DNA of 63,927 nt, counting the filler, from Stramenopiles sp. TOSAG23-6 (Eukaryota), in NCBI GenBank assembly GCA_900128565.1. It is 10 parts of 10 records of this genome, joined end to end, with 100 filler letters (N's around TTAATTAATTAA, not from the genome) between each part and the next. Parts side by side here need not be neighbours in the genome. Positions count along the whole stretch, not along the records: positions 22,722 to 33,946 come from LT636275.1; 9 more parts are not named here. The stretch is one strand, 5' to 3'. Below the pieces are notes generated by a model. That model saw only the letters and a program-made list of their open reading frames with translations, was not told the DNA's origin and searched no databases. Shown piece after piece: positions 11,368 through 50,468 of the stretch. The position numbers and the translations under genes are program-made. How positions within the stretch are numbered: the stretch's first letter is position 1; the number at the start of each line of letters is the position of its first letter.

Positions 11368-11748
11368 AGAAGATACATCGAAAGAAAACGAGACAAGAGA
11401 AGAAACAAGAGAAAAAAGCAGCAAAACAAGCTAAACAATTAGCGAAACAGAAAGCTAAAGATGCCAAGAAACTTGCAAAGGAGCAAAAAAAACTTGCAAA
11501 TGAACAAGCAAAGCAAAAGGCTAAAGAATTACAGGATGTCAAGGACGAACTCGAAGCGGCAGAGCGTGCTATTATAAATGGTGCCAATACTACTCAAATA
11601 CAAATGGGCAGAGGCAGAGGCAGAGGCAGAGGTAGAGGTAGAGGTAGGGGCAGAGGTAGAGGCAGGGGTAGAGGAGGTGGAGTATCTCGATAGAACTAAA
11701 TCATAAGCATTAGGATTGACTGTATTTTTAATAAACGAATCGATTTAT

Positions 11749-14685
11749 TTACTTTTTAATTTTACGTTTCTTCTTCTTTCTACTATTAACATCATCTTCA
11801 TCTTTTTTATTTCCAACTAACTCTAATAATACTTCATCACGATACGCTTCTGATTCCTTGACGCNGACCCTTATCATAATTTTGTCAAATACACCAATTT
11901 TCTGTCCATTTCTTGATGACAATGCTAAATTTTTCTCATCAAGAGTCCAATCATTTTCCTCCGTAGAGCGTCGGCATTGTCCAGCTTCTTCAGATTGTTG
12001 TTTTGATAAATCAGAGCCACCAAGTCGTACAAAACCTTCAAATCCGTATTTTAGAACTATGACACCAACACCAGATGCTCTTACTCGTAAGACAACACCT
12101 TCAACTATCATTGGGTTATCTTTAAAAAATACGCGTGTATACAACTGTGTGGAATCGCGACCCGCCATTTGTGCTGCATAACTACGTTTGTTAATAATTT
12201 CACAAACATTGTGAATGCGGGCTTTATCATTATACATTGCGGGCATTGGCTCAATACCAATACTAGCAGCTAGCATACGATGTGCAACAACATCAGCATA
12301 GCGACGAATTGGTGACGTAAAATGTGTATATATTGGCGTTGCGAGACCATAATGTCGGTATTCATCGGGGGTTCTTTCACCGGAACAAAAGTATACTGCC
12401 TGATTCATGCACCGAGTAGCAAGAATCCGAATAATTTTATTGAACATTGGATCATCATCACGAACTGCCTTATCAAGAGATTGTGCAAGAGCGAGCGAAG
12501 TATCAACTTTAAGTTCCACTCCAGCAATACTAGCAGCGTGTAATAATTCATCGAATCGACGACGTGAGGGTTGAGGATGTCGTCGTAGTAAAGCAAATGA
12601 CGGAAAAAAATCTTTGATTTGTTGAGCCACAGCAATATTTGCTAAAAGCATAAATTCTTCAACAACATGATTGGCTTCTACCATTTGATACATTTTCACT
12701 GATGTCGGATCATTTGTCTCTTCATTCATTTGAAATCTAACTTCAGGTGAAGCTAAAGTAAGAGCACCAGCTGCAATACGTCGAGATCGCAAAGTTCTTG
12801 ATATTTTTGCCAACAAGCGAACCGATGTAGCGATATCACTTTCACGCGAAGGATCATCCAAAAACTCCTGCGCTTGTCCATAAGTAAGACCTGCACGGGA
12901 ATGTACAATACTACGATGAAACTTTATACCATCTGGACCAGGAATCTTTTTTAAGGTTACCGGATCTAACTGCCATATACATGAAAATACAAAACGATCA
13001 ACGTTTGGTTTCACACTGCATAACGTTTCAGTGAGTAAACCTGGAAGCATATCAAGTCTCCGTTCTACAATATATGTTGTCGTAGATCTTCGTTTTGCTT
13101 CTTCGTCAATGGCCGTTCCAGGACGAACAAAATAAGTCACATCTGCGATATGGACTCCACATTCAATATTACCATTTGGCAAAACTCTGGCATGAAGAGC
13201 ATCATCTATATCTTTGCAGCCTGGAGGATCTATACTACATACTGTAAGATGTCGAAGATCTACACGATCATTCGCATTTTCTGCAGTAATTTTAAAGTCA
13301 GGTGGTGGTAAACATTGTAAGACAGCAGGAGAAAATGCTTCAGTTGGGATTTCATGTTCTAATAGAATAACTTGAGACTCAATATCCTTATCTCTAACAT
13401 CTCCAATTGTCCGCACATAATGGCCATCAGGGAAGCTACTAAAAACACCCCACGAATCTAATGCAACTACAATCCATTTCCCTTCAAGAATATCCCTTTG
13501 ACGAGTTTTTATAATTGTATTTGGAAATCGTGAGTCTCGGGGGATAAAGACGGCGCGGTCTCCAACAATAAAGTCTTCTTTTTTAATTGTTCCACATAGT
13601 TGACGCCAATTCCGTTTTACTACAGAGATTACACAACCATACACATCTGTAGAATCTTCAGATGGTTTTTGGGATATTTGTTTTGAGTTTTTATCTTTAG
13701 CATCAACGTCACCATCGATATCCATTTTGTCATCTTTGTCAATAAGCTGAATAATACAAATATCCCCATCAACAGCTCGGTTTATATGCTCCCTACTAGA
13801 TAATTTGATAAGAACCTCTTCACCATCAGATGATTTCATTACTGCTGTTGCTTCACGCCAATGGTATTTGTTCTGTCGCAAAACAGCTTCAACTAATGTT
13901 CCATCTTTCAACCCAGCAGTAACTGCTTCTTCAGGCCAATAATCTCTGAACTTTGCTCCATTCTGTAAATGACCTTTCACTGAGGATTTCTTCAATTGTT
14001 TATTTCCTTTATTTTTCGTTTTCTTCATACCCCGACGTTTATTACTCCCACTCGCAACATATGTGGCAACAAGAGGGACTAATTCTGGATATTCATCCGC
14101 CAATTTATCCACGAAATTTTGCACGGTGGACGCTTCAACACCGTCCATCTTTGCTCTATGTAAATTTTCTCTGTCATCCGTCAAAAGTAAAATATTCAAT
14201 ATACCTTCAAATTTTTTTGCATACCAAGAAGCAACTCCACGAATCAAACGGTCATTGTAATCGTTAGGTGATTCATCATTCTCCTGATCGGCATATGTAG
14301 ACCGGTGATGTTCGTTAGCGAAAAGGAAAAAACGACGAGTATTATCTCTAATGAGAGCAACTAATCTCTTGTAAATGCCAACGTCGTTGTGTTTCACTTC
14401 AGCCAAAGTAGTCTCTGGAATAATAGCATCACATAAAGGAGCACAGTTTTGCTCTAATAAATCTATTTGGTGTAATGCAACGTTTGTATCAATTACTAAG
14501 TATCGTGAGTTAAAAGGTCTCTTGGAGAGCACTGGTACAGCATGACTTCCCATATCAGATTCGTCAACTAACTCCGAGCCACAGTTTATATCATCTCTTA
14601 AATAATGCTCACGGCACACTCGAATCATTTTTTGTGAACGAGTTGCAATGTCAATAACTTTGCAGCGCCATAGATCATTCGACAT
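11749..14685 (-). CDS. DIS3: exosome catalytic subunit DIS3/RRP44 (mirror copy)
   Basis: REHYLRDDI, PIN domain (VIDTNVALHQ), RNB motif SIDPPGCKDIDDALH, HFTSPIRRYAD; ATG MSNDLW. Confidence 0.93.
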   Translation of the reverse strand: MSNDLWRCKVIDIATRSQKMIRVCREHYLRDDINCGSELVDESDMGSHAVPVLSKRPFNSRYLVIDTNVALHQIDLLEQNCAPLCDAIIPETTLAEVKHNDVGIYKRLVALIRDNTRRFFLFANEHHRSTYADQENDESPNDYNDRLIRGVASWYAKKFEGILNILLLTDDRENLHRAKMDGVEASTVQNFVDKLADEYPELVPLVATYVASGSNKRRGMKKTKNKGNKQLKKSSVKGHLQNGAKFRDYWPEEAVTAGLKDGTLVEAVLRQNKYHWREATAVMKSSDGEEVLIKLSSREHINRAVDGDICIIQLIDKDDKMDIDGDVDAKDKNSKQISQKPSEDSTDVYGCVISVVKRNWRQLCGTIKKEDFIVGDRAVFIPRDSRFPNTIIKTRQRDILEGKWIVVALDSWGVFSSFPDGHYVRTIGDVRDKDIESQVILLEHEIPTEAFSPAVLQCLPPPDFKITAENANDRVDLRHLTVCSIDPPGCKDIDDALHARVLPNGNIECGVHIADVTYFVRPGTAIDEEAKRRSTTTYIVERRLDMLPGLLTETLCSVKPNVDRFVFSCIWQLDPVTLKKIPGPDGIKFHRSIVHSRAGLTYGQAQEFLDDPSRESDIATSVRLLAKISRTLRSRRIAAGALTLASPEVRFQMNEETNDPTSVKMYQMVEANHVVEEFMLLANIAVAQQIKDFFPSFALLRRHPQPSRRRFDELLHAASIAGVELKVDTSLALAQSLDKAVRDDDPMFNKIIRILATRCMNQAVYFCSGERTPDEYRHYGLATPIYTHFTSPIRRYADVVAHRMLAASIGIEPMPAMYNDKARIHNVCEIINKRSYAAQMAGRDSTQLYTRVFFKDNPMIVEGVVLRVRASGVGVIVLKYGFEGFVRLGGSDLSKQQSEEAGQCRRSTEENDWTLDEKNLALSSRNGQKIGVFDKIMIRVXVKESEAYRDEVLLELVGNKKDEDDVNSRKKKKRKIKK

Positions 14686-14986
14686 GACGGCAAAATGGAG
14701 CCTACAGTGAGCACAAGACAGTACAATGTTTAGATTAAATAAATATTGAGCACCTAAGCTCGAATTTTGCGTGCTGACTTGAAATTTTGACACGTGGCAC
14801 TTGAAATTTGAATGCTTGAAATCTTTGTCGAAATCTTCGAAAATATAATTTTAAACGTTGAACGACCGAACGACTACTCCCATTCATCTTCAATTCTGAG
14901 ATCTCCCAATGAGATAGCATCTTGATTGATTGGCATACTAAAGAAATTATCTAGCAGTCTATTCAATAATAATAGATGATATAACA

Positions 14987-16663
14987 ATGGAACTGCCTAT
15001 GTTTTCTTCAACTAGTAAAAAACCTGTCATTAAACCCGAAACTACGGATTTTAATAGTCCAATAATTACAAACACGTATATGCGATCACTAATGAAGAAA
15101 GGAGAAACAAGCTGGCTCTCTACTGCGGAGCTAAATTGCATACTCATAAATCATAAGGTTTATGGCATGAAACTTCATGATGTTTCTCCGCAACACCCGC
15201 CTAGTGGCAGTTTCTATTTGTACGATAAAAAAGTTGTTAAATATTTTCGACAGGACGGTCATAATTGGACAAAACGTGCTGGGTCAAACGCTATAAAAGA
15301 AGCTCATATGAAGATACAACTGGACGGCAAACCAAACATGCATTGTTATTACTGTAGTCATAGAATTAACCCTGCATTTCGAAGGCGTGTATATTGGCTC
15401 ATTGAGAACCCTAAAATCGTTTTGGTTCATTATTTGGAAGAAGGAAGTAAAGGTAAACCTAGAAAGGCCTCGTCACATCTTGTAAAAAAAGAAACTCCTC
15501 CTCAACCACCAACCGTTACAATTGTTGAATTTTGTCCAGAGACTTCTATGTGCACGGGTGGAACTAAACTTATTATGTGTGTCGACCAACCTATAGATGG
15601 GAACGGGGTTTTTATTGTATTTGGAAAAAGACTCGTTCCTGCACAAAGTGTTAATCATCAAACTTTAAAGTGTATTATTCCAGAATCACTTGTACCTTGC
15701 GAAGTATCATTAAAGTTACAGTTTCGTAATACACTGAATACTATCACATTCCCTTGTACATTTAAGTACACCGCAAACTCGTTTAGAATTCCTACTAATA
15801 TTTGTGCGACCCCTCCACCTCAACCTTTACCGCTAGATGGTGCAAAACATGGTGCAAAACTTGGTACAAAACCTTTACCGCTAGATGGTGCAAAACTTGG
15901 TACAAAAAAAAGGGCAGCAAAGCAGTTAACTAGCACAGAGTTACTTGAGCTTAATCCACGGGAATTCAAAACACGTATTGTTGAACGAGTTGGCGCTGTA
16001 GACTGTGCAATGAAAAACACTTCACCAGTAAAGCTGTCGACTTCTCACATCTTTGACGATGAACAATTGGAGAATATAGACGATGAGTCTGTTTCGAAAT
16101 TATCAGCTGCGTTAGTGTCTCAAGCCATTCAACAATTAGTTGATTTTGGCCGAGAAAATAATGTTCTTGATGAAATTAATAGTCTTGATGATGATGGTTT
16201 CAGTTTATTTCATTATGTAATTTTATACAAGAATTTGGAATTAGTCAAAATGTTGCTGAGTAATGGAGCTATACTGCATTCCCGAACTAGTTCAGGTGAC
16301 TCCCCGCTTCATTTAGCAGCTCAAGCAGGTTTAGATAAAATTGTTGAGTTATTATTATCTAAAGGAGCTGATCCATCCGCAATGAATAAAGAGTTTCAAA
16401 CACCTTTTGATAAAGCAAATCTGAATGGATATGGATATCTTTCATATCTTTTACAGCCTGAAAGCATGTGCGTTTTTCATCATGAAATTCAAATTTATTT
16501 TTTTCCATACTAGATTTTGTACTGAACAATTTTTTTGACTAAACAAAATATTTTTTTCACAATACATAAAGGGTCTCCTGAATAGTCCTATACCCTCTTT
16601 TGCGCTGACAGATACCGAAGGAAAATCAACAAATTCTAATGCTACGGAAGTGGTGCAAGACAT
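14987..16663 (+). CDS. CAMTA: CAMTA-like transcription factor (CG-1, TIG, ankyrin), 3'-truncated; exons 14987-16467, 16568-16663
   Basis: CG-1 motif FRQDGHNWTKR...KEAHMK...FRRRVYWL...VLVHY, TIG domain and ankyrin repeats; breaks at the fold-back centre. Confidence 0.88.
16468..16567 (+). mobile_element. GT-AT introner-like intron (100 nt); mirror copy at 16850-16949 (-)
   Basis: AGCAT|GTGCGTTTT...TTTTGTACTGAAC...CACAATACAT|AAAG; next exon is open up to the next donor at 16664. Confidence 0.8.
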
Positions 16664-16753
16664 GTATGTTTTATTTTTTTTTTAAACAAAAAAATCGATT
16701 TTTTTCGTACGAAAAAAATCGATTTTTTTGTTTAAAAAAAAAATAAAACATAC

Positions 16754-18430
16754 ATGTCTTGCACCACTTCCGTAGCATTAGAATTTGTTGATTTTCCTTC
16801 GGTATCTGTCAGCGCAAAAGAGGGTATAGGACTATTCAGGAGACCCTTTATGTATTGTGAAAAAAATATTTTGTTTAGTCAAAAAAATTGTTCAGTACAA
16901 AATCTAGTATGGAAAAAAATAAATTTGAATTTCATGATGAAAAACGCACATGCTTTCAGGCTGTAAAAGATATGAAAGATATCCATATCCATTCAGATTT
17001 GCTTTATCAAAAGGTGTTTGAAACTCTTTATTCATTGCGGATGGATCAGCTCCTTTAGATAATAATAACTCAACAATTTTATCTAAACCTGCTTGAGCTG
17101 CTAAATGAAGCGGGGAGTCACCTGAACTAGTTCGGGAATGCAGTATAGCTCCATTACTCAGCAACATTTTGACTAATTCCAAATTCTTGTATAAAATTAC
17201 ATAATGAAATAAACTGAAACCATCATCATCAAGACTATTAATTTCATCAAGAACATTATTTTCTCGGCCAAAATCAACTAATTGTTGAATGGCTTGAGAC
17301 ACTAACGCAGCTGATAATTTCGAAACAGACTCATCGTCTATATTCTCCAATTGTTCATCGTCAAAGATGTGAGAAGTCGACAGCTTTACTGGTGAAGTGT
17401 TTTTCATTGCACAGTCTACAGCGCCAACTCGTTCAACAATACGTGTTTTGAATTCCCGTGGATTAAGCTCAAGTAACTCTGTGCTAGTTAACTGCTTTGC
17501 TGCCCTTTTTTTTGTACCAAGTTTTGCACCATCTAGCGGTAAAGGTTTTGTACCAAGTTTTGCACCATGTTTTGCACCATCTAGCGGTAAAGGTTGAGGT
17601 GGAGGGGTCGCACAAATATTAGTAGGAATTCTAAACGAGTTTGCGGTGTACTTAAATGTACAAGGGAATGTGATAGTATTCAGTGTATTACGAAACTGTA
17701 ACTTTAATGATACTTCGCAAGGTACAAGTGATTCTGGAATAATACACTTTAAAGTTTGATGATTAACACTTTGTGCAGGAACGAGTCTTTTTCCAAATAC
17801 AATAAAAACCCCGTTCCCATCTATAGGTTGGTCGACACACATAATAAGTTTAGTTCCACCCGTGCACATAGAAGTCTCTGGACAAAATTCAACAATTGTA
17901 ACGGTTGGTGGTTGAGGAGGAGTTTCTTTTTTTACAAGATGTGACGAGGCCTTTCTAGGTTTACCTTTACTTCCTTCTTCCAAATAATGAACCAAAACGA
18001 TTTTAGGGTTCTCAATGAGCCAATATACACGCCTTCGAAATGCAGGGTTAATTCTATGACTACAGTAATAACAATGCATGTTTGGTTTGCCGTCCAGTTG
18101 TATCTTCATATGAGCTTCTTTTATAGCGTTTGACCCAGCACGTTTTGTCCAATTATGACCGTCCTGTCGAAAATATTTAACAACTTTTTTATCGTACAAA
18201 TAGAAACTGCCACTAGGCGGGTGTTGCGGAGAAACATCATGAAGTTTCATGCCATAAACCTTATGATTTATGAGTATGCAATTTAGCTCCGCAGTAGAGA
18301 GCCAGCTTGTTTCTCCTTTCTTCATTAGTGATCGCATATACGTGTTTGTAATTATTGGACTATTAAAATCCGTAGTTTCGGGTTTAATGACAGGTTTTTT
18401 ACTAGTTGAAGAAAACATAGGCAGTTCCAT
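16754..18430 (-). CDS. CAMTA: CAMTA-like (mirror copy in the fold-back)
   Basis: Exact reverse complement of 14987-16663. Confidence 0.8.
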
Positions 18431-18731
18431 TGTTATATCATCTATTATTATTGAATAGACTGCTAGATAATTTCTTTAGTATGCCAATCAATCAAGATGC
18501 TATCTCATTGGGAGATCTCAGAATTGAAGATGAATGGGAGTAGTCGTTCGGTCGTTCAACGTTTAAAATTATATTTTCGAAGATTTCGACAAAGATTTCA
18601 AGCATTCAAATTTCAAGTGCCACGTGTCAAAATTTCAAGTCAGCACGCAAAATTCGAGCTTAGGTGCTCAATATTTATTTAATCTAAACATTGTACTGTC
18701 TTGTGCTCACTGTAGGCTCCATTTTGCCGTC

Positions 18732-21668
18732 ATGTCGAATGATCTATGGCGCTGCAAAGTTATTGACATTGCAACTCGTTCACAAAAAATGATTCGAGTG
18801 TGCCGTGAGCATTATTTAAGAGATGATATAAACTGTGGCTCGGAGTTAGTTGACGAATCTGATATGGGAAGTCATGCTGTACCAGTGCTCTCCAAGAGAC
18901 CTTTTAACTCACGATACTTAGTAATTGATACAAACGTTGCATTACACCAAATAGATTTATTAGAGCAAAACTGTGCTCCTTTATGTGATGCTATTATTCC
19001 AGAGACTACTTTGGCTGAAGTGAAACACAACGACGTTGGCATTTACAAGAGATTAGTTGCTCTCATTAGAGATAATACTCGTCGTTTTTTCCTTTTCGCT
19101 AACGAACATCACCGGTCTACATATGCCGATCAGGAGAATGATGAATCACCTAACGATTACAATGACCGTTTGATTCGTGGAGTTGCTTCTTGGTATGCAA
19201 AAAAATTTGAAGGTATATTGAATATTTTACTTTTGACGGATGACAGAGAAAATTTACATAGAGCAAAGATGGACGGTGTTGAAGCGTCCACCGTGCAAAA
19301 TTTCGTGGATAAATTGGCGGATGAATATCCAGAATTAGTCCCTCTTGTTGCCACATATGTTGCGAGTGGGAGTAATAAACGTCGGGGTATGAAGAAAACG
19401 AAAAATAAAGGAAATAAACAATTGAAGAAATCCTCAGTGAAAGGTCATTTACAGAATGGAGCAAAGTTCAGAGATTATTGGCCTGAAGAAGCAGTTACTG
19501 CTGGGTTGAAAGATGGAACATTAGTTGAAGCTGTTTTGCGACAGAACAAATACCATTGGCGTGAAGCAACAGCAGTAATGAAATCATCTGATGGTGAAGA
19601 GGTTCTTATCAAATTATCTAGTAGGGAGCATATAAACCGAGCTGTTGATGGGGATATTTGTATTATTCAGCTTATTGACAAAGATGACAAAATGGATATC
19701 GATGGTGACGTTGATGCTAAAGATAAAAACTCAAAACAAATATCCCAAAAACCATCTGAAGATTCTACAGATGTGTATGGTTGTGTAATCTCTGTAGTAA
19801 AACGGAATTGGCGTCAACTATGTGGAACAATTAAAAAAGAAGACTTTATTGTTGGAGACCGCGCCGTCTTTATCCCCCGAGACTCACGATTTCCAAATAC
19901 AATTATAAAAACTCGTCAAAGGGATATTCTTGAAGGGAAATGGATTGTAGTTGCATTAGATTCGTGGGGTGTTTTTAGTAGCTTCCCTGATGGCCATTAT
20001 GTGCGGACAATTGGAGATGTTAGAGATAAGGATATTGAGTCTCAAGTTATTCTATTAGAACATGAAATCCCAACTGAAGCATTTTCTCCTGCTGTCTTAC
20101 AATGTTTACCACCACCTGACTTTAAAATTACTGCAGAAAATGCGAATGATCGTGTAGATCTTCGACATCTTACAGTATGTAGTATAGATCCTCCAGGCTG
20201 CAAAGATATAGATGATGCTCTTCATGCCAGAGTTTTGCCAAATGGTAATATTGAATGTGGAGTCCATATCGCAGATGTGACTTATTTTGTTCGTCCTGGA
20301 ACGGCCATTGACGAAGAAGCAAAACGAAGATCTACGACAACATATATTGTAGAACGGAGACTTGATATGCTTCCAGGTTTACTCACTGAAACGTTATGCA
20401 GTGTGAAACCAAACGTTGATCGTTTTGTATTTTCATGTATATGGCAGTTAGATCCGGTAACCTTAAAAAAGATTCCTGGTCCAGATGGTATAAAGTTTCA
20501 TCGTAGTATTGTACATTCCCGTGCAGGTCTTACTTATGGACAAGCGCAGGAGTTTTTGGATGATCCTTCGCGTGAAAGTGATATCGCTACATCGGTTCGC
20601 TTGTTGGCAAAAATATCAAGAACTTTGCGATCTCGACGTATTGCAGCTGGTGCTCTTACTTTAGCTTCACCTGAAGTTAGATTTCAAATGAATGAAGAGA
20701 CAAATGATCCGACATCAGTGAAAATGTATCAAATGGTAGAAGCCAATCATGTTGTTGAAGAATTTATGCTTTTAGCAAATATTGCTGTGGCTCAACAAAT
20801 CAAAGATTTTTTTCCGTCATTTGCTTTACTACGACGACATCCTCAACCCTCACGTCGTCGATTCGATGAATTATTACACGCTGCTAGTATTGCTGGAGTG
20901 GAACTTAAAGTTGATACTTCGCTCGCTCTTGCACAATCTCTTGATAAGGCAGTTCGTGATGATGATCCAATGTTCAATAAAATTATTCGGATTCTTGCTA
21001 CTCGGTGCATGAATCAGGCAGTATACTTTTGTTCCGGTGAAAGAACCCCCGATGAATACCGACATTATGGTCTCGCAACGCCAATATATACACATTTTAC
21101 GTCACCAATTCGTCGCTATGCTGATGTTGTTGCACATCGTATGCTAGCTGCTAGTATTGGTATTGAGCCAATGCCCGCAATGTATAATGATAAAGCCCGC
21201 ATTCACAATGTTTGTGAAATTATTAACAAACGTAGTTATGCAGCACAAATGGCGGGTCGCGATTCCACACAGTTGTATACACGCGTATTTTTTAAAGATA
21301 ACCCAATGATAGTTGAAGGTGTTGTCTTACGAGTAAGAGCATCTGGTGTTGGTGTCATAGTTCTAAAATACGGATTTGAAGGTTTTGTACGACTTGGTGG
21401 CTCTGATTTATCAAAACAACAATCTGAAGAAGCTGGACAATGCCGACGCTCTACGGAGGAAAATGATTGGACTCTTGATGAGAAAAATTTAGCATTGTCA
21501 TCAAGAAATGGACAGAAAATTGGTGTATTTGACAAAATTATGATAAGGGTCNGCGTCAAGGAATCAGAAGCGTATCGTGATGAAGTATTATTAGAGTTAG
21601 TTGGAAATAAAAAAGATGAAGATGATGTTAATAGTAGAAAGAAGAAGAAACGTAAAATTAAAAAGTAA
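18732..21668 (+). CDS. DIS3: exosome catalytic subunit DIS3/RRP44
   Basis: PIN + CSD + RNB + S1 motifs as in the mirror copy; no introns. Confidence 0.93.
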   Translation: MSNDLWRCKVIDIATRSQKMIRVCREHYLRDDINCGSELVDESDMGSHAVPVLSKRPFNSRYLVIDTNVALHQIDLLEQNCAPLCDAIIPETTLAEVKHNDVGIYKRLVALIRDNTRRFFLFANEHHRSTYADQENDESPNDYNDRLIRGVASWYAKKFEGILNILLLTDDRENLHRAKMDGVEASTVQNFVDKLADEYPELVPLVATYVASGSNKRRGMKKTKNKGNKQLKKSSVKGHLQNGAKFRDYWPEEAVTAGLKDGTLVEAVLRQNKYHWREATAVMKSSDGEEVLIKLSSREHINRAVDGDICIIQLIDKDDKMDIDGDVDAKDKNSKQISQKPSEDSTDVYGCVISVVKRNWRQLCGTIKKEDFIVGDRAVFIPRDSRFPNTIIKTRQRDILEGKWIVVALDSWGVFSSFPDGHYVRTIGDVRDKDIESQVILLEHEIPTEAFSPAVLQCLPPPDFKITAENANDRVDLRHLTVCSIDPPGCKDIDDALHARVLPNGNIECGVHIADVTYFVRPGTAIDEEAKRRSTTTYIVERRLDMLPGLLTETLCSVKPNVDRFVFSCIWQLDPVTLKKIPGPDGIKFHRSIVHSRAGLTYGQAQEFLDDPSRESDIATSVRLLAKISRTLRSRRIAAGALTLASPEVRFQMNEETNDPTSVKMYQMVEANHVVEEFMLLANIAVAQQIKDFFPSFALLRRHPQPSRRRFDELLHAASIAGVELKVDTSLALAQSLDKAVRDDDPMFNKIIRILATRCMNQAVYFCSGERTPDEYRHYGLATPIYTHFTSPIRRYADVVAHRMLAASIGIEPMPAMYNDKARIHNVCEIINKRSYAAQMAGRDSTQLYTRVFFKDNPMIVEGVVLRVRASGVGVIVLKYGFEGFVRLGGSDLSKQQSEEAGQCRRSTEENDWTLDEKNLALSSRNGQKIGVFDKIMIRVXVKESEAYRDEVLLELVGNKKDEDDVNSRKKKKRKIKK

Positions 21669-21723
21669 ATAAATCGATTCGTTTATTAAAAATACAGTCA
21701 ATCCTAATGCTTATGATTTAGTT

Positions 21724-22566
21724 CTATCGAGATACTCCACCTCCTCTACCCCTGCCTCTACCTCTGCCCCTACCTCTACCTCTACCTCTGCCTCTGCCTC
21801 TGCCTCTGCCCATTTGTATTTGAGTAGTATTGGCACCATTTATAATAGCACGCTCTGCCGCTTCGAGTTCGTCCTTGACATCCTGTAATTCTTTAGCCTT
21901 TTGCTTTGCTTGTTCATTTGCAAGTTTTTTTTGCTCCTTTGCAAGTTTCTTGGCATCTTTAGCTTTCTGTTTCGCTAATTGTTTAGCTTGTTTTGCTGCT
22001 TTTTTCTCTTGTTTCTTCTCTTGTCTCGTTTTCTTTCGATGTATCTTCTTCTCAACTCCTTTCAATTCGCTCTCAGCAAAATGAAGCAGCGCTTCCTCGG
22101 CGTCTTTGAATCGTCCATGATTCTGGTTTGATATTTCGCGTTTGTAGCGCCTTTGGCGCTCTAATTTGTGCACTAAAGCTATATTAGCAGCAACTTTTCG
22201 AGCCCTGTTACCTCGCGCATGCCTTTGAATCATCGTGACAGCTTTCATGCGAATCCATTTTCTACGTCGCTCTGCTTTCTCCGATTTCTTTCTATTCTGT
22301 TTCTCTGCAATCCTGTTTTCTCTATCCATCTTCTTCTGAAACTTTTTTTGACGTTTTGCTTTCATATCTTCTGGTCTAGATCCTTTCAATGGTTTTAGAA
22401 TAACAGGAGGTCTCTCTGGGCGAACTAAATCTAAGGATGGTCGACTTGGACTTTTTGCCCCCATTTGCAGCACATAATCAGTGAATTTGTCAATCTCATC
22501 TTGATTTGCAGAAATGGACTCTTCAGCAGCCGTTATTTGGTCATTTAATTCTATTACTAGCTTTCC
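21724..22566 (-). CDS. IQ-motif coiled-coil protein with C-terminal RG repeat (5' partial)
   Basis: AVTMIQRHARGNRAR IQ motif and (GR)n tail; frame open upstream to 22566. Confidence 0.65.
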   Translation of the reverse strand, partial: GKLVIELNDQITAAEESISANQDEIDKFTDYVLQMGAKSPSRPSLDLVRPERPPVILKPLKGSRPEDMKAKRQKKFQKKMDRENRIAEKQNRKKSEKAERRRKWIRMKAVTMIQRHARGNRARKVAANIALVHKLERQRRYKREISNQNHGRFKDAEEALLHFAESELKGVEKKIHRKKTRQEKKQEKKAAKQAKQLAKQKAKDAKKLAKEQKKLANEQAKQKAKELQDVKDELEAAERAIINGANTTQIQMGRGRGRGRGRGRGRGRGRGRGRGGGVSR

Positions 22567-22786
22567 AGAAGATACATCGAAAGAAAACGAGACAAGAGAA
22601 GAAACAAGAGAAAAAAGCAGCNNNNNNNNNNNNNNNNNNNNNNNNNNNNNNNNNNNNNNNNNNNNTTAATTAATTAANNNNNNNNNNNNNNNNNNNNNNN
22701 NNNNNNNNNNNNNNNNNNNNNCGTACGAAATTTTGTACCTAACAAATTTAAGTTTTTTTTTTTTGAAATATTTTTCCGAAATACAT

Positions 22787-23994
22787 ATAAAAGAATAATA
22801 GACTTTTTTGGAATCAAAAAATTCGATGTCACACCTTTTGCTACAAAAGATTATATGAAAAAAAAAGGAAAATGCCGGAAATCACGTTTAAACTTTCAAT
22901 TGCATGTATGTTGTATTTGTTTTGAATTTCGAATTTGTTTTTTTTTTGGTTCGAAATTTCGTACCTAATGAGTTTTTTTTTTAAATATTTTTTCACAATA
23001 AATACACCATCACAAAATTTTGACACACGCATCGAAGAATTAGCTTCCATAGCTTCTGCTATGCAAATTAAAGGCATGAAATATTGCGGCAAATTGTCGT
23101 ATGCAAATGAGGTTGCTCGAAATTGTAATATCGCTAGTCTCGAAAACATCCAAAAATTATCAAGCGTAAATTTGACTACTGTCGATATTTTTGATAAAAT
23201 GCTTACTGAAGGTTTGTTTCCGCCCATTAAAGTTCAGTATCATTCACAGTATGGATTCGTCATGTAGGTTTTTTTTCGTACGAAATTTTGTACCTAACAT
23301 TTTTTTTTCATTCTACATTTTTATCATGAATTTCAATTTTTATTTTTAGTATTTCATCTTATCAAATGTAAAACATATTACCCCAAAATACATGGTCTCT
23401 AATGGTAAAATTAAGGATAGGACTTTAATATGTGAGTATATTGGTAGTGTAGAATTTCTTGAGGAAACTGTACGTTTTCATTATGAATTTTAAATTTATT
23501 CAGTTTTTTTTTCGTACGAAATTTTGTACCTAACAAATTTTACCAAAAAACAAATTTCACAATATATGACCACACAGACAGCGATTCTCTAATGGAACTT
23601 CTTCATAGTGGTCATACGGATACTTCGTTAATTGTCACGCCAAACAAAATAGGAAATTATGCGAGATTCATCCAGGGGATCAATAATAGTGATGTAAATT
23701 CGGTCAGACGTCAAAACGTTCGATCTGGCCGTTTTTGTATCAATGTACGTTGATAAATTTCACTATTTGTTTTTGTTTTTTTGTTTAGGTACGGAATTTC
23801 GTACAAAAAAAAAACAGGAAAAAAAATCATATGATTTTGTACCTAATACAAAAAAGATTTTTTTCTATTTTTTCACAAGATATGGCGAAAGTCGTGTATT
23901 TTTGTTTGCTGTACGAACAATAAAAAAAGGGGAGCTATTGTACTACGACTATAATGCTCATAGTAATAAATATCCTACTGAACACTTTACATAA
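22787..23994 (+). CDS. ATXR5/ATXR6-like SET-domain histone methyltransferase (5' partial); exons 22787-22905, 23004-23263, 23394-23469, 23568-23744, 23884-23994
   Basis: Spliced product has PIP-like KRIIDFF, TPSQNFDTRIEELASIASAM, GFVMVSNGKIKDRTLICEYIG, GNYARFIQGINN, INGESRVFLFA...GELLYYDYN...YPTEHF, collinear with plant ATXR5/6 as I recall them. Confidence 0.88.
22906..23003 (+). mobile_element. GT-AT intron (98 nt)
   Basis: CAT|GTATGT...TTCGTACCTAAT...CACAATAAAT|ACA. Confidence 0.85.
23264..23393 (+). mobile_element. GT-AT intron (130 nt)
   Basis: GTCAT|GTAGGT...TTCGTACGAAATTTTGTACCTAAC...AAAATACAT|GGTC; gives an ungapped SET-domain segment. Confidence 0.88.
23470..23567 (+). mobile_element. 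GT-AT intron (98 nt)
   Basis: ACT|GTACGT...TTCGTACGAAATTTTGTACCTAAC...CACAATATAT|GAC. Confidence 0.88.
23745..23883 (+). mobile_element. GT-AT intron (139 nt) containing an inverted core copy
   Basis: AAT|GTACGT...CACAAGATAT|GGC restores IN-GESRV; the AG 4 nt upstream would frameshift. Confidence 0.9.
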
Positions 23995-45228: not shown

Positions 45229-45431
45229 TTGAAGANTNCANGAATCAGACTNNNNNNNNNNNNNNNNNNNNNNNNNNNNNNNNNNNNNNNNNNNNTTAAT
45301 TAATTAANNNNNNNNNNNNNNNNNNNNNNNNNNNNNNNNNNNNNNNNNNNNAAAAAAAATTAAATTCGAAATTTGTTAGGTACAAAATTTCGTACGAAAA
45401 AAACAATTTGAAATTCATAATGAAAACGTGC

Positions 45432-45511
45432 GGTATTTGCTAACTTGGGATTTCCTTTATATATCAAACCACCAAAGCATTCCACGCCAACACTTGAAAA
45501 AATAGAGAAGA
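45432..45511 (-). CDS. orphan exon resembling the S5/pore segment of a two-pore-type Ca2+ channel
   Basis: Only open frame between two elements reads FSIFSSVGVECFGGLIYKGNPKLANT. Confidence 0.5.
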
Positions 45512-48237: not shown

Positions 48238-49995
48238 ATGAGCAAAATGTCTAAAACTGTACCAAACACAACAAAAGATGAAGAAAATCTCTTTGACAAA
48301 GTCTTTAGTGGGCTTGGACCTGCCATCGTAATTACTAGCTATTTATGTCTTAACGACAGATTCTCTGGACGAGCTGTCTCGAATGACAAATACCGTCCTT
48401 GGATGGTCGGTGCTGATTGGGGTAAAGTAACGTCTTGGAAAGCATCAAAGGCTGGTAACTTGGAATTTATTCAATGGTTAAGAATTCAAAATCCACCTTG
48501 TCCATGGGATAGACGGACGTGTTATGAGGCAGCTGCAAATGGTCACTTGGAAGTATTACAATGGGTAAGAAGTCAAAATCCACCTTGTCCGTGGGATAAA
48601 GAGGCATGTAGTGCAGCAGCTTCTGCAGGTCACTTAAAAATATTGAAATGGGTAAGAAGTCAAAACCCACCTTGTCCATGGGATAGATGGACGTGTGTTT
48701 ATGCAGCTAAAAATAGTCATTTGGAAGTATTGAAATGGGTAAGAAGTCAAAATCCACCTTGTCCGTGGAATGAATGGACGTGTGATTATGCAGCTGAAAA
48801 TGGTCATTTAGAAGTATTGAAATGGGTTAGAAGTCAAAATCCACCTTGCCCATGGGATAAACGTACGTGTCGTGATGCAGCTCGAAAAGGTCACTTAGAA
48901 GTATTGAAATGGGTAAGAAGTCAAAATCCACCTTGTCCATGGGATAAAGAAACGTGTTATTGTGCAGCTGCAAGTGGTCACTTAGAAGTATTGAAATATC
49001 TAAGAAGTCAAAATCCACCTTGTCCATGGGATGAAGAGACGTGTCAAAATGCAGCTTCCAATGGTCAATTGGAAGTATTGAAATGGTTGAGAAGTCAAAA
49101 TCCACCTTGTCCATGGAATTGGAGTACATGTTCGTTTGCAGTGAAAGAACGTCACTTCAAAATATTGAAATGGGTCAGAAGTCAAAATCCACCTTGTCCA
49201 TGGGATGAAAGTACATGTAGTTGGGCAGGTCGAACTGGTCAATTAGAAGTATTACGATGGTTAAGAAGTCAAAATCCACCTTGTCCATGGGATGGAAAAA
49301 CATGTGGTTGGGCAGCTAAAACTGGTCATTTAGAAGTATTGGAATGGTTAAGAAGTCAAAATCCACCTTGTCCATGGGATGAAGGAACGTGTTGGAGAGC
49401 AGCTAAAAATGGTCACTTGGAAGTATTAAAATGGTTAAGAAGTCAAAATCCACCTTGTCCTTGGGATGATCAAACGTATGATGAGGCAGCTGGGGGAGGT
49501 CACTTGGAAATATTAAAATGGGTGAGAAGTCAAAATCCACCGTTCCAGTGCGAAGAATGGACGTGTCGTATGGCAGCTGGAAATGGTCAGTTAGAAGTAT
49601 TGAAATGGTTAAGAAGTCAAAATCCATCTTGTCCTTGGGATAAAGAGACGTGTTCGGAAGCAGCTAGATATGGTCAATTAGAAGTATTGGAATGGTTAAG
49701 AAGTCAAAATCCACCTTGTCCTTGGGATGAAGGGACGTGTTTTGAAGCAGCTGACAATGGTCACGTAGAAGTAATAGAATGGGTAAGAAGTCAAAATCCA
49801 CCTTGTCCATGGGATGAATTAACATGTTCTTATGCAGTTACTGACGGTCACTTGGACGTATTGAAATGGATAAGAAGTCAAAACCCACCTTGTCCATGGA
49901 GTAATAATCCGTGTTATTGGGCAGCTCGGTTTGGTCACTTAGAAGTATTGAAATGGTTAAAAGAGGTAGAAGCCCCAGGTTATGAACTTAACTAG
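48238..49995 (+). CDS. ankyrin-like tandem repeat protein (17 x 29 aa)
   Basis: 87-bp units encoding QNPPCPWDxxTCxxAAxxGHLEVLKWLRS. Confidence 0.9.
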   Translation: MSKMSKTVPNTTKDEENLFDKVFSGLGPAIVITSYLCLNDRFSGRAVSNDKYRPWMVGADWGKVTSWKASKAGNLEFIQWLRIQNPPCPWDRRTCYEAAANGHLEVLQWVRSQNPPCPWDKEACSAAASAGHLKILKWVRSQNPPCPWDRWTCVYAAKNSHLEVLKWVRSQNPPCPWNEWTCDYAAENGHLEVLKWVRSQNPPCPWDKRTCRDAARKGHLEVLKWVRSQNPPCPWDKETCYCAAASGHLEVLKYLRSQNPPCPWDEETCQNAASNGQLEVLKWLRSQNPPCPWNWSTCSFAVKERHFKILKWVRSQNPPCPWDESTCSWAGRTGQLEVLRWLRSQNPPCPWDGKTCGWAAKTGHLEVLEWLRSQNPPCPWDEGTCWRAAKNGHLEVLKWLRSQNPPCPWDDQTYDEAAGGGHLEILKWVRSQNPPFQCEEWTCRMAAGNGQLEVLKWLRSQNPSCPWDKETCSEAARYGQLEVLEWLRSQNPPCPWDEGTCFEAADNGHVEVIEWVRSQNPPCPWDELTCSYAVTDGHLDVLKWIRSQNPPCPWSNNPCYWAARFGHLEVLKWLKEVEAPGYELN

Positions 49996-50468
49996 TAAAA
50001 ATTATGGAGTGTAAAAATAGAGTGAAATATATATTTATTTGTAGTACATCATCGTATGTATTGTTTGAAGATGAGTTTTTGATATCATTGGATATATAAT
50101 CATTAAAGAATTTCGTAATTAAATTTTTAATGTACATGTGTTTGGTAGATTATTTTACTATAATATCATACACAAACTACACCTATGAAAAAATTAGATA
50201 ATTATATTTTATAATAATTCCGGAATTATCATTCTTAGACCCAGAGTTTGTGGGTGTCAAAAATGAGTTATTCGTGGTTACCGGGTAATAATGAATTCAA
50301 ATTTTCAAATTTTCAAACTCGAATCTCTTTTTCGCGCTCGACCTCGAGAGGGAAGAAAAAGAATTCAAACAAAGGTAAATATCGTGTGACACTCTCCTTC
50401 AGAAAGTGTACTAGTTTTTCTTTTTCATTGCCCAACTGTAGACTTGGATAGTGGTATATTTATCTGCA

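Follow-up and report, generated by a model that had tools for sequence, protein, structure and literature searches.

An ATXR5/6-type SET gene of Stramenopiles sp. TOSAG23-6 with introner-like introns that very probably end in AT

Introns that start with GT and end with AT are otherwise rare (PMC1557818). In Fritillaria borealis and F. pellucida, AT is the commonest 3′ end (34% and 44%, respectively; PMC13326754), and Amoebophrya has varied intron ends with no U1 found (PMC7789003). The structural explanation of the terminal AG comes from the yeast P complex, where its G pairs with the first G of the intron and its A(-2) with the branch A, the site being clamped by Prp18 together with Prp8 (bioRxiv 10.1101/212811). 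When yeast is deprived of Prp18, HAU and BG are the main non-AG ends, which are aided by poly(U); a U(-1)-G(+1) pair has been proposed for such ends, whereas a clash is expected from C or A (PMC10711555). The literature searched contained no account of a protist in which GT-AT introns predominate. As for the protein treated below, Tetrahymena TXR1 is the known ciliate orthologue of ATXR5/6 (PMC9409234).

The gene analyzed here lies in a stretch of 63,927 nucleotides of Stramenopiles sp. TOSAG23-6 DNA, hereafter called the window, in which contigs follow one another with spacers between them. An artificial spacer between contigs occupies positions 22622-22721, and the contig of the gene (G000:C325) begins at 22722. 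All exons are on the plus strand. The first exon of this part of the gene (22787-22905) carries a PIP-like motif, KRIIDFF (22789-22809), without the usual Q. It is followed by an exon for the nSET region (23004-23263), which matches positions 26-107 of 5VA6 with an E value of 0.024, and by a short exon for the start of SET (23394-23469; 5VA6 112-132). The SET core (23568-23744) aligns with 5VA6 135-193 without a gap (E 2.8e-10), and the last exon (23884-23994) provides the SET C-terminus and the stop codon (5VA6 194-228, E 1.8e-10). When the exons were searched singly against structure sequences, the ATXR5/6-type structures 5VA6, 5VAC, 5VBC, and 4O30 were the best and nearly the sole matches per exon. 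The best four matches of exon 23004-23263 are all ATXR5/6, ATXR5/6 entries alone match exon 23568-23744 at E<=1, and the next family after ATXR5/6 for exon 23884-23994 is KMT2A (E 0.053). Among solved SET domains, the nearest to this one is that of ATXR5/6, and the exon-by-exon matches to 5VA6 bear out the ATXR5/6 assignment made in the first-pass annotation. I found a single copy of the gene in the assembly, with all exons intact, in frame, and conserved. Its 93 relatives, 54 of which cover the SET region, include Blastocystis and Triparma proteins, and PHD occurs together with SET in 11 of the 12 relatives scanned. The presence of ATXR5/6 in a protist, which had been thought notable, is not so in view of Tetrahymena TXR1 and the Blastocystis and Triparma homologues. 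The SET gene itself is ordinary, an added member of a known family.

Where is the 5′ half of the gene? A complete C4-H-C3 PHD pattern was found across three exons on another contig, G000:C167, and a motif in common with homologue P0015 follows the PHD there (E 0.004). The middle PHD exon searched alone gave no Pfam match. One PHD intron on C167 is GT...TT after a TT-ending exon, its place being pinned by a conserved W-F-C-P motif. The repeat at the end of C167 overlaps the cut intron 0 of the window by 51 nt, and the same overlap is present at other contig ends. The two contigs are probably to be joined, judging from homology, frame, and the continuous alignment of the joined product with the best relative (40% over 391 columns). 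Another contig, C1097, was dropped as a candidate for the 5′ half; it is without the first PHD cysteines, which C167 has, and it is seemingly mis-joined at an element. C1097 and C167 (L152, L153, from position 637) share one end and diverge inside the element. Contigs starting or ending in elements are many, so gene models across them need care.

The locus is likely to be the 3′ half of a working ATXR5/6-type H3K27 monomethyltransferase gene with PHD, PIP-like motif, and SET. The PIP box announced by the first-pass annotation is indeed at 22789-22809, but in a non-canonical form; it keeps I-x-D-F-F and lacks the Q of Q-x-x-I-x-x-F-F. Among the 11 homologues with the motif, Q is present at this position in six and absent in five. 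The codon at the usual Q position ends in AT and reads Y in the joined model.

As first noticed, the gene contains four complete elements and a partial one. The partial element, intron 0 (22722-22786, plus strand as are all introns here), is the 3′ part of a family copy cut by the contig start and ends in AT; its 5′ part is probably at the end of C167, which would give a 100-nt GT...AT intron. Intron A (22906-23003, 98 nt) has its branch box at 22962 and its branch A 35 nt from the end, and the preceding exon ends in AT. In intron B (23264-23393, 130 nt), the branch box is at 23291, 96 nt from the end. Intron C (23470-23567, 98 nt; branch box at 23527) follows an exon ending in CT, which makes an AT-AC reading impossible there, and a CAG downstream at 23577 is out of frame. 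Intron D (23745-23883, 139 nt; branch box at 23840) contains an inverted second core on the minus strand at about 23784-23803. Doubled or nested family copies were also seen at several places beyond intron D. All four complete introns read GT...AT with the branch box TACCTAA(C/T), and each carries in-frame stops or shifts the frame.

The branch A lies 34-37 nt from the end in introns A, C, and D. Intron B departs from this fixed distance unless a weak hairpin forms. A 57-nt hairpin is predicted at 23314-23370 on the plus strand (-6.0 kcal/mol; 10 of 300 shuffles were as stable), and this folding may hide the out-of-frame AG at 23349, which is skipped over, in its loop, leaving 39 unpaired nucleotides from branch A to end. 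Recursive splicing of intron B was considered and rejected, as the inner AT and GT sites restore neither frame nor donor.

It was then assessed what homology says about the joints. Splicing at GT...AT gives the sole open frame among 81 frame combinations, with 246 amino acid residues. At joints B, C, and D, the exon matches to 5VA6 adjoin each other residue by residue, so the alignment to this plant ATXR5 needs no indel there. The span over the joint equals that of the SET gene in 30 of 40 (A), 50 of 52 (B), 45 of 54 (C), and 54 of 54 (D) homologues from the set of 54 SET-covering relatives. Joints B, C, and D are tightly anchored, but joint A sits in a looser region. A profile of the 54 relatives was used to score every GT/GC-AG pair found up to 60 nt from a joint. 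Every such alternative hits a stop codon or costs 6.1-79.9 bits, the best one losing 6.1 bits at A, 18.3 at B, 9.9 at C, and 16.2 at D. The best alternative for intron A combines a GC donor with an AG only 4 nt from the branch A. For intron D, an AG at 23856 is in frame and adds nine residues where 54 of the 54 homologues have none (-16.2 bits). The CAAG just 4 nt before the AT end (23876-23879, plus strand) causes a frameshift with the GT donor, as had been stated; use of the AG at 23879 gives a 234-residue product that has lost the SET C-terminus. Since no GT/GC-AG pair gives an intact protein, no normal intron fits.

The exact register is another matter. Slides of 1-3 nt yield an identical mRNA at all four joints, and other slides cost 0-3 bits (2.9 bits for a CA...AG slide at joint D and 0 bits for CT...AT at joint C). 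Homology thus settles how long the introns are and that no AG is usable, but it does not settle the register. The four joints, put forward as tests of the AT acceptor, are thus tests of the absence of any GT/GC-AG pair with an intact product and leave AT itself and its register unfixed. Evidence for the AT register comes from the GT donor, from the pairing with U1, and from joints seen in the RNA of other genes. Taken together, the introns of the SET gene very probably end in AT, not AG.

The spliceosomal RNAs were searched for in the assembly. U5, U2, U1, and U4 are in one compact 640-nt cluster (L036:9-645, G000:C1146), with U6 elsewhere. The U2 branch box, the U5 loop, and the U6 box match the Rfam consensus. 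The predicted U1 scores 54.1 bits versus the Rfam cut-off of 69.5 and differs from the consensus at positions 2, 5, and 9. Its first 11 bases are the complement of exon CAT followed by intron GTACGTTT, and G5 also pairs with T, fitting both donor types. The four SET donors make 9.5, 10, 9, and 9 of 11 pairs with this U1, compared with 7, 8.5, 6, and 6 of 11 with the consensus U1; when set in the -2 register, they make 3-5 of 11 pairs with the organism's U1. The exon part of the pairing amounts to 2.09 of 3 pairs versus 1.29 in the census of family copies described below (n=87), in which the pairing of U1 with the intron, but not with the exon, is partly built into the filter. The sole U1 found sits on two duplicate contigs, and a second, canonical U1 was not found in the assembly. 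Judging from these predicted pairs, it is U1 pairing, including that with the last T of the exon, that fixes the GT register. Neither U12 nor U6atac was found in the approximately 60% complete assembly by a search without a positive control.

RNA joints were read on locus L119 (G000:C178), whose digestive-enzyme genes contain a family copy as well as one intron ending in AT and one ending in AG. Fourteen marine metatranscriptome runs contain 0.05-0.21 of the words of the SET contig. Four of these runs (X1-X4) were compared with L119. In two of them, X1 and X2, RNA contigs skip a 94-nt GT..AT intron of a cathepsin gene, with zero slide possible; an AG 23 nt from the end of this intron is passed by, and the family core is absent from it. 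A GT..AG intron of 102 nt in this gene, which serves as a control, is likewise skipped exactly by the X1 and X2 contigs. A contig of run X3 skips a 92-nt family copy, GT..AT, with a 2-nt slide, and the RNA contig and the genome have three differences in 418 nt at this family joint. The lengths of the joined records sum exactly (66+91+200=357, 226+91+135+22=474, and 419+34=453), with the letters between marked as not known. The joined contigs have a depth of 2.7-7.9 and come from three samples of one study (X1, X2, and X3), and run X4 of a second study gave no joint at L119. Hundreds of RNA contigs are drawn by an element core at L119:8168-8474, where the depth is 7068 in X1, 5235 in X4, 13 in X2, and 263 in X3, with exon depth being similar across runs. 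The deep element RNA of X1 and X4 may be due to frequent retention, DNA carry-over, or a related organism. An intron-less allele or a relative may be the source of the joined RNA. The RNA contigs speak for AT ends in this organism, at two introns outside the SET gene, and are no proof for the SET gene itself.

How common are these elements? A 24-nt family core has 2564 exact occurrences in the 21 Mb assembly (duplicate contigs included) and none in the reversed control; the repeat is therefore not due to chance. The copies occur in many unrelated genes. For a census, 385 core hits in the window and in sampled loci were reduced to 87 single, complete copies by excluding 72 duplicates, 78 hits at edges or N's, 57 with multiple cores, 53 without the end motif, 12 without a donor, and 26 ties. 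The census loci were partly picked by the core and are non-random, and several of the automatic boundaries are visibly wrong. With this in mind, the copies have a median length of 99 nt and a median distance of 37 nt between branch A and end. The end motif is followed by the two bases AT in 69 copies, GT in six, TT in four, AG in three, CT in two, and others in three. T is the last base of the intron in 81 of 87 copies, T or G in 84, and A is at -2 in 74. The last base of the exon, which was outside the census filter, is T in 74 of 87. A cut after these two end bases keeps the frame open over 150 nt in 72 of the 87 copies; cuts displaced by three bases do so in 66-71, and out-of-phase ones in 24-29. 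In copies whose exon ends otherwise than in AT, the exon end is repeated at the intron end in seven of 32 cases (1.05 expected; 0 of 20000 shuffles). It is unrepeated in the other 25, which agree equally well with a duplication, with drift at a later time, or with an element whose end is fixed.

Introns without the core were also read by eye; six end in AG (in L074, L076, L078, L079, L065, and L138) and one in AT. The AG-ending introns in L065, L078, and L079 often end in TATAG, one letter from the TATAT or TACAT of the family. These TATAG introns may be aged family copies, or the family may mimic the host end. A family copy on the minus strand of the window (45370-45440) seemingly starts with GC, not GT. 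One gene on contig C13 (L122:1-3500) carries about 15 elements in 3.4 kb. At L048, L050, and L144, which presumably encode eEF2, Snu114, and Prp8, the portions covered have long open frames free of elements. Family elements seem to avoid highly expressed genes. No empty-site orthologue was found in metagenome contigs or among longer proteins (six candidates, none scored). A search for the element core gave no viral locus, and in metagenomes it was found at one locus, L143, which has one complete CAT/GT...ACAT copy.

Some other features of the window may be mentioned. A perfect 5341-nt inverted repeat at 11368-22049 is centred on a repeat element, and the first 54 nt of its contig recur at the contig end; this is most likely an artefact of assembly or amplification. 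Telomere-like TTAGGG repeats occur between genes and inside some introns (at about 24840 and 62250 of the window, and in L045 and L053). At 48355-50046, about 19 tandem 87-nt units encode ankyrin-like repeats.

Protein factors that may bear on the choice of the intron end were examined next to the RNAs. Both Slu7 and Prp8 were found. The alpha-finger of Prp8 was rejected as the cause of AT ends, this stretch being near-identical to the human one. A divergent U2AF65-like protein (L085:1108-3069, minus strand, G000:C433) scores 188.7 bits, below the cut-off of 310.3; its two RRMs resemble each other. U2AF35 was not found with two motif patterns, which gave no match and chance-level matches, and none of the 11 zf-CCCH loci (15 matches) resembles U2AF35. 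Prp18 was not found in the approximately 60% complete assembly, again by a search without a positive control. Eight of the 14 proteasome core subunits, as presumptively identified, were found; therefore, the chance that a missing gene merely falls in an assembly gap is about four in ten. The rule for yeast without Prp18 matches the ends seen here, because T or G is last and A is at -2 in most copies of the census (84 and 74 of 87).

From these results, I consider it probable (about 0.8) that the SET introns are copies of a family of introner-like introns of about 100 nt, removed by the major (U2) spliceosome at GT...AT. The rewritten 5′ end of U1, complementary by sequence to exon CAT and intron GTA(C/T)GTTT, would set the cut before GT, and the unchanged U2 box can pair, again by sequence, with TACCTAAC. 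The intron would end some 35 nt downstream of the branch A, where a U-rich tract and a CA(A/C)AATAY motif have been passed. The A at -2 would still pair with the branch A, and the U at -1 would pair with the first G of the intron. The joining of both AT and AG ends in RNA contigs at other genes suggests a relaxed YA(G/T) rule. U1/U2 assembly would thus be normal, the end would be chosen by distance and end motif, and the second step would be relaxed. It is conceivable, though doubtful, that the relaxation arose because a fidelity factor of the second step, such as Prp18, and the reading of AG by U2AF35 were lost or altered.

As to the origin of the family, it may well have been a small DNA element that had GTA...TAC ends and duplicated 2 nt of its target as it spread, the copies being kept mostly at AT sites; I lean toward this history. 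At such sites, insertion would be harmless because the upstream copy of the target suits U1 and the downstream copy is the acceptor. A more far-reaching and tentative idea is that the code of the major spliceosome has shifted at both intron ends, from CAG/GT...YAG/ to CAT/GT...YAT/ (slashes marking the cuts). U1 position 9 would read the last T of the exon, U2AF35 and Prp18 would have been lost, and a transposon duplicating 2 nt would have made thousands of AT sites perfect introns, with older AG introns still spliced.

Could the elements be spliced inefficiently in this gene, the copy being damaged or its protein altered through AG sites, with the joined RNA derived from intron-less alleles or a close relative? 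The RNA joints are known from other genes and from RNA records alone, the element contigs are far deeper than the exons (7068 in X1 and 5235 in X4 versus 0-9), and open GT/GC-AG alternatives exist for every SET intron. I regard this as unlikely, nevertheless, because the exons of this single-copy gene are all intact, in frame, and conserved, and a switch to AG sites would lose 6-80 bits. The RNA contigs hardly differ from the genome (at three places in 418 nt at the family joint), and one contig set exactly joins the AT and AG introns of the same gene.

Major-spliceosome removal at GT...AT must also be weighed against a slid register (AT...AC/AA/AT or TG...NA) or a non-spliceosomal, hairpin-guided removal as in euglenids, in which case the AT would be an artefact of flanking repeats. 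Slides of 1-3 nt are silent in the mRNA at all four joints, and the ends of the SET introns are short inverted repeats, limited to GTA...TAY, with 4-8 of 12 matches. On the other hand, no more than 3-5 of 11 positions pair with U1 in the -2 register, which would turn intron C into CT...AT, and the cathepsin joint, which has zero slide, reads GT..AT. Strong end-to-end hairpins were looked for in the SET introns and found no support, the folding z-scores being weak (-0.4 to -1.9), and the U2-type branch box is conserved. A slid register or a hairpin route is still less likely than inefficient splicing. Handling of the SET introns by the minor (U12) spliceosome is the most improbable of these explanations. 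It is tolerant of GT-AT, and GT-AT introns of the U12 type are spliced productively in seven human and mouse cases (PMC1557818). The branch-to-end distance of 34-37 nt speaks against it, as does, with the reservations about control and incomplete genome given above, the failure to find U12 and U6atac. Moreover, the GTA(C/T)GT donors fit the organism's U1 and differ from the U12-type donor.

If the SET introns are removed by the major spliceosome at GT...AT, thousands of U2 introns with a strong GT donor end in AT beside AG introns, in an organism with a normal Prp8 alpha-finger. This is a natural test of the factors that enforce AG. The change at U1 position 9 ties donor context, transposon target choice, and acceptor identity into one testable model. 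In practice, gene finders requiring AG will mis-build these genes.

Compared with known systems, the SET gene resembles ATXR5, ATXR6, and Tetrahymena TXR1 in the order of PHD, PIP-like motif, and nSET-SET, and differs from them in the absence of the first Q of the PIP box and in a longer linker after the PHD. The introns resemble those of Fritillaria, which are transposon-like, U2-spliced, and marked by YAY before the donor and at the intron end (PMC13326754). However, the main Fritillaria classes start with AG, the two versions of U1 have identical 5′ ends with weak complementarity, and the U2AF subunits are duplicated (PMC13326754), whereas a strong GT donor and a rewritten U1 are found here and U2AF35 was not found. 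The introners of Micromonas, Aureococcus, Chrysochromulina, and others are likewise thousands of similar short introns; they have short inverted ends and a flank repeat, and one class of them carries its 5′ site and obtains its 3′ site from the duplication, as may be the case here (PMC9860276; PMC12130899; PMC11282704). The 3′ sites given in these introner surveys are AG or AC, whereas the putatively borrowed end here is mostly AT. Entamoeba, Mastigamoeba, and Physarum are alike in having a U1 5′ end changed to suit an atypical donor, and the Mastigamoeba U1 has the same ACGUAC core as the U1 found here (bioRxiv 10.1101/2022.06.08.495308). The changes described there affect positions that read the intron; the U1 found here has a further change, C to A at position 9, which reads the last base of the exon, and is accompanied by an AT acceptor. 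Finally, yeast without Prp18 shares the CAU and UAU ends after poly(U) and the proposed U(-1)-G(+1) pair; the HAU ends that are rare mutant errors in yeast are apparently the main route in this stramenopile (PMC10711555).
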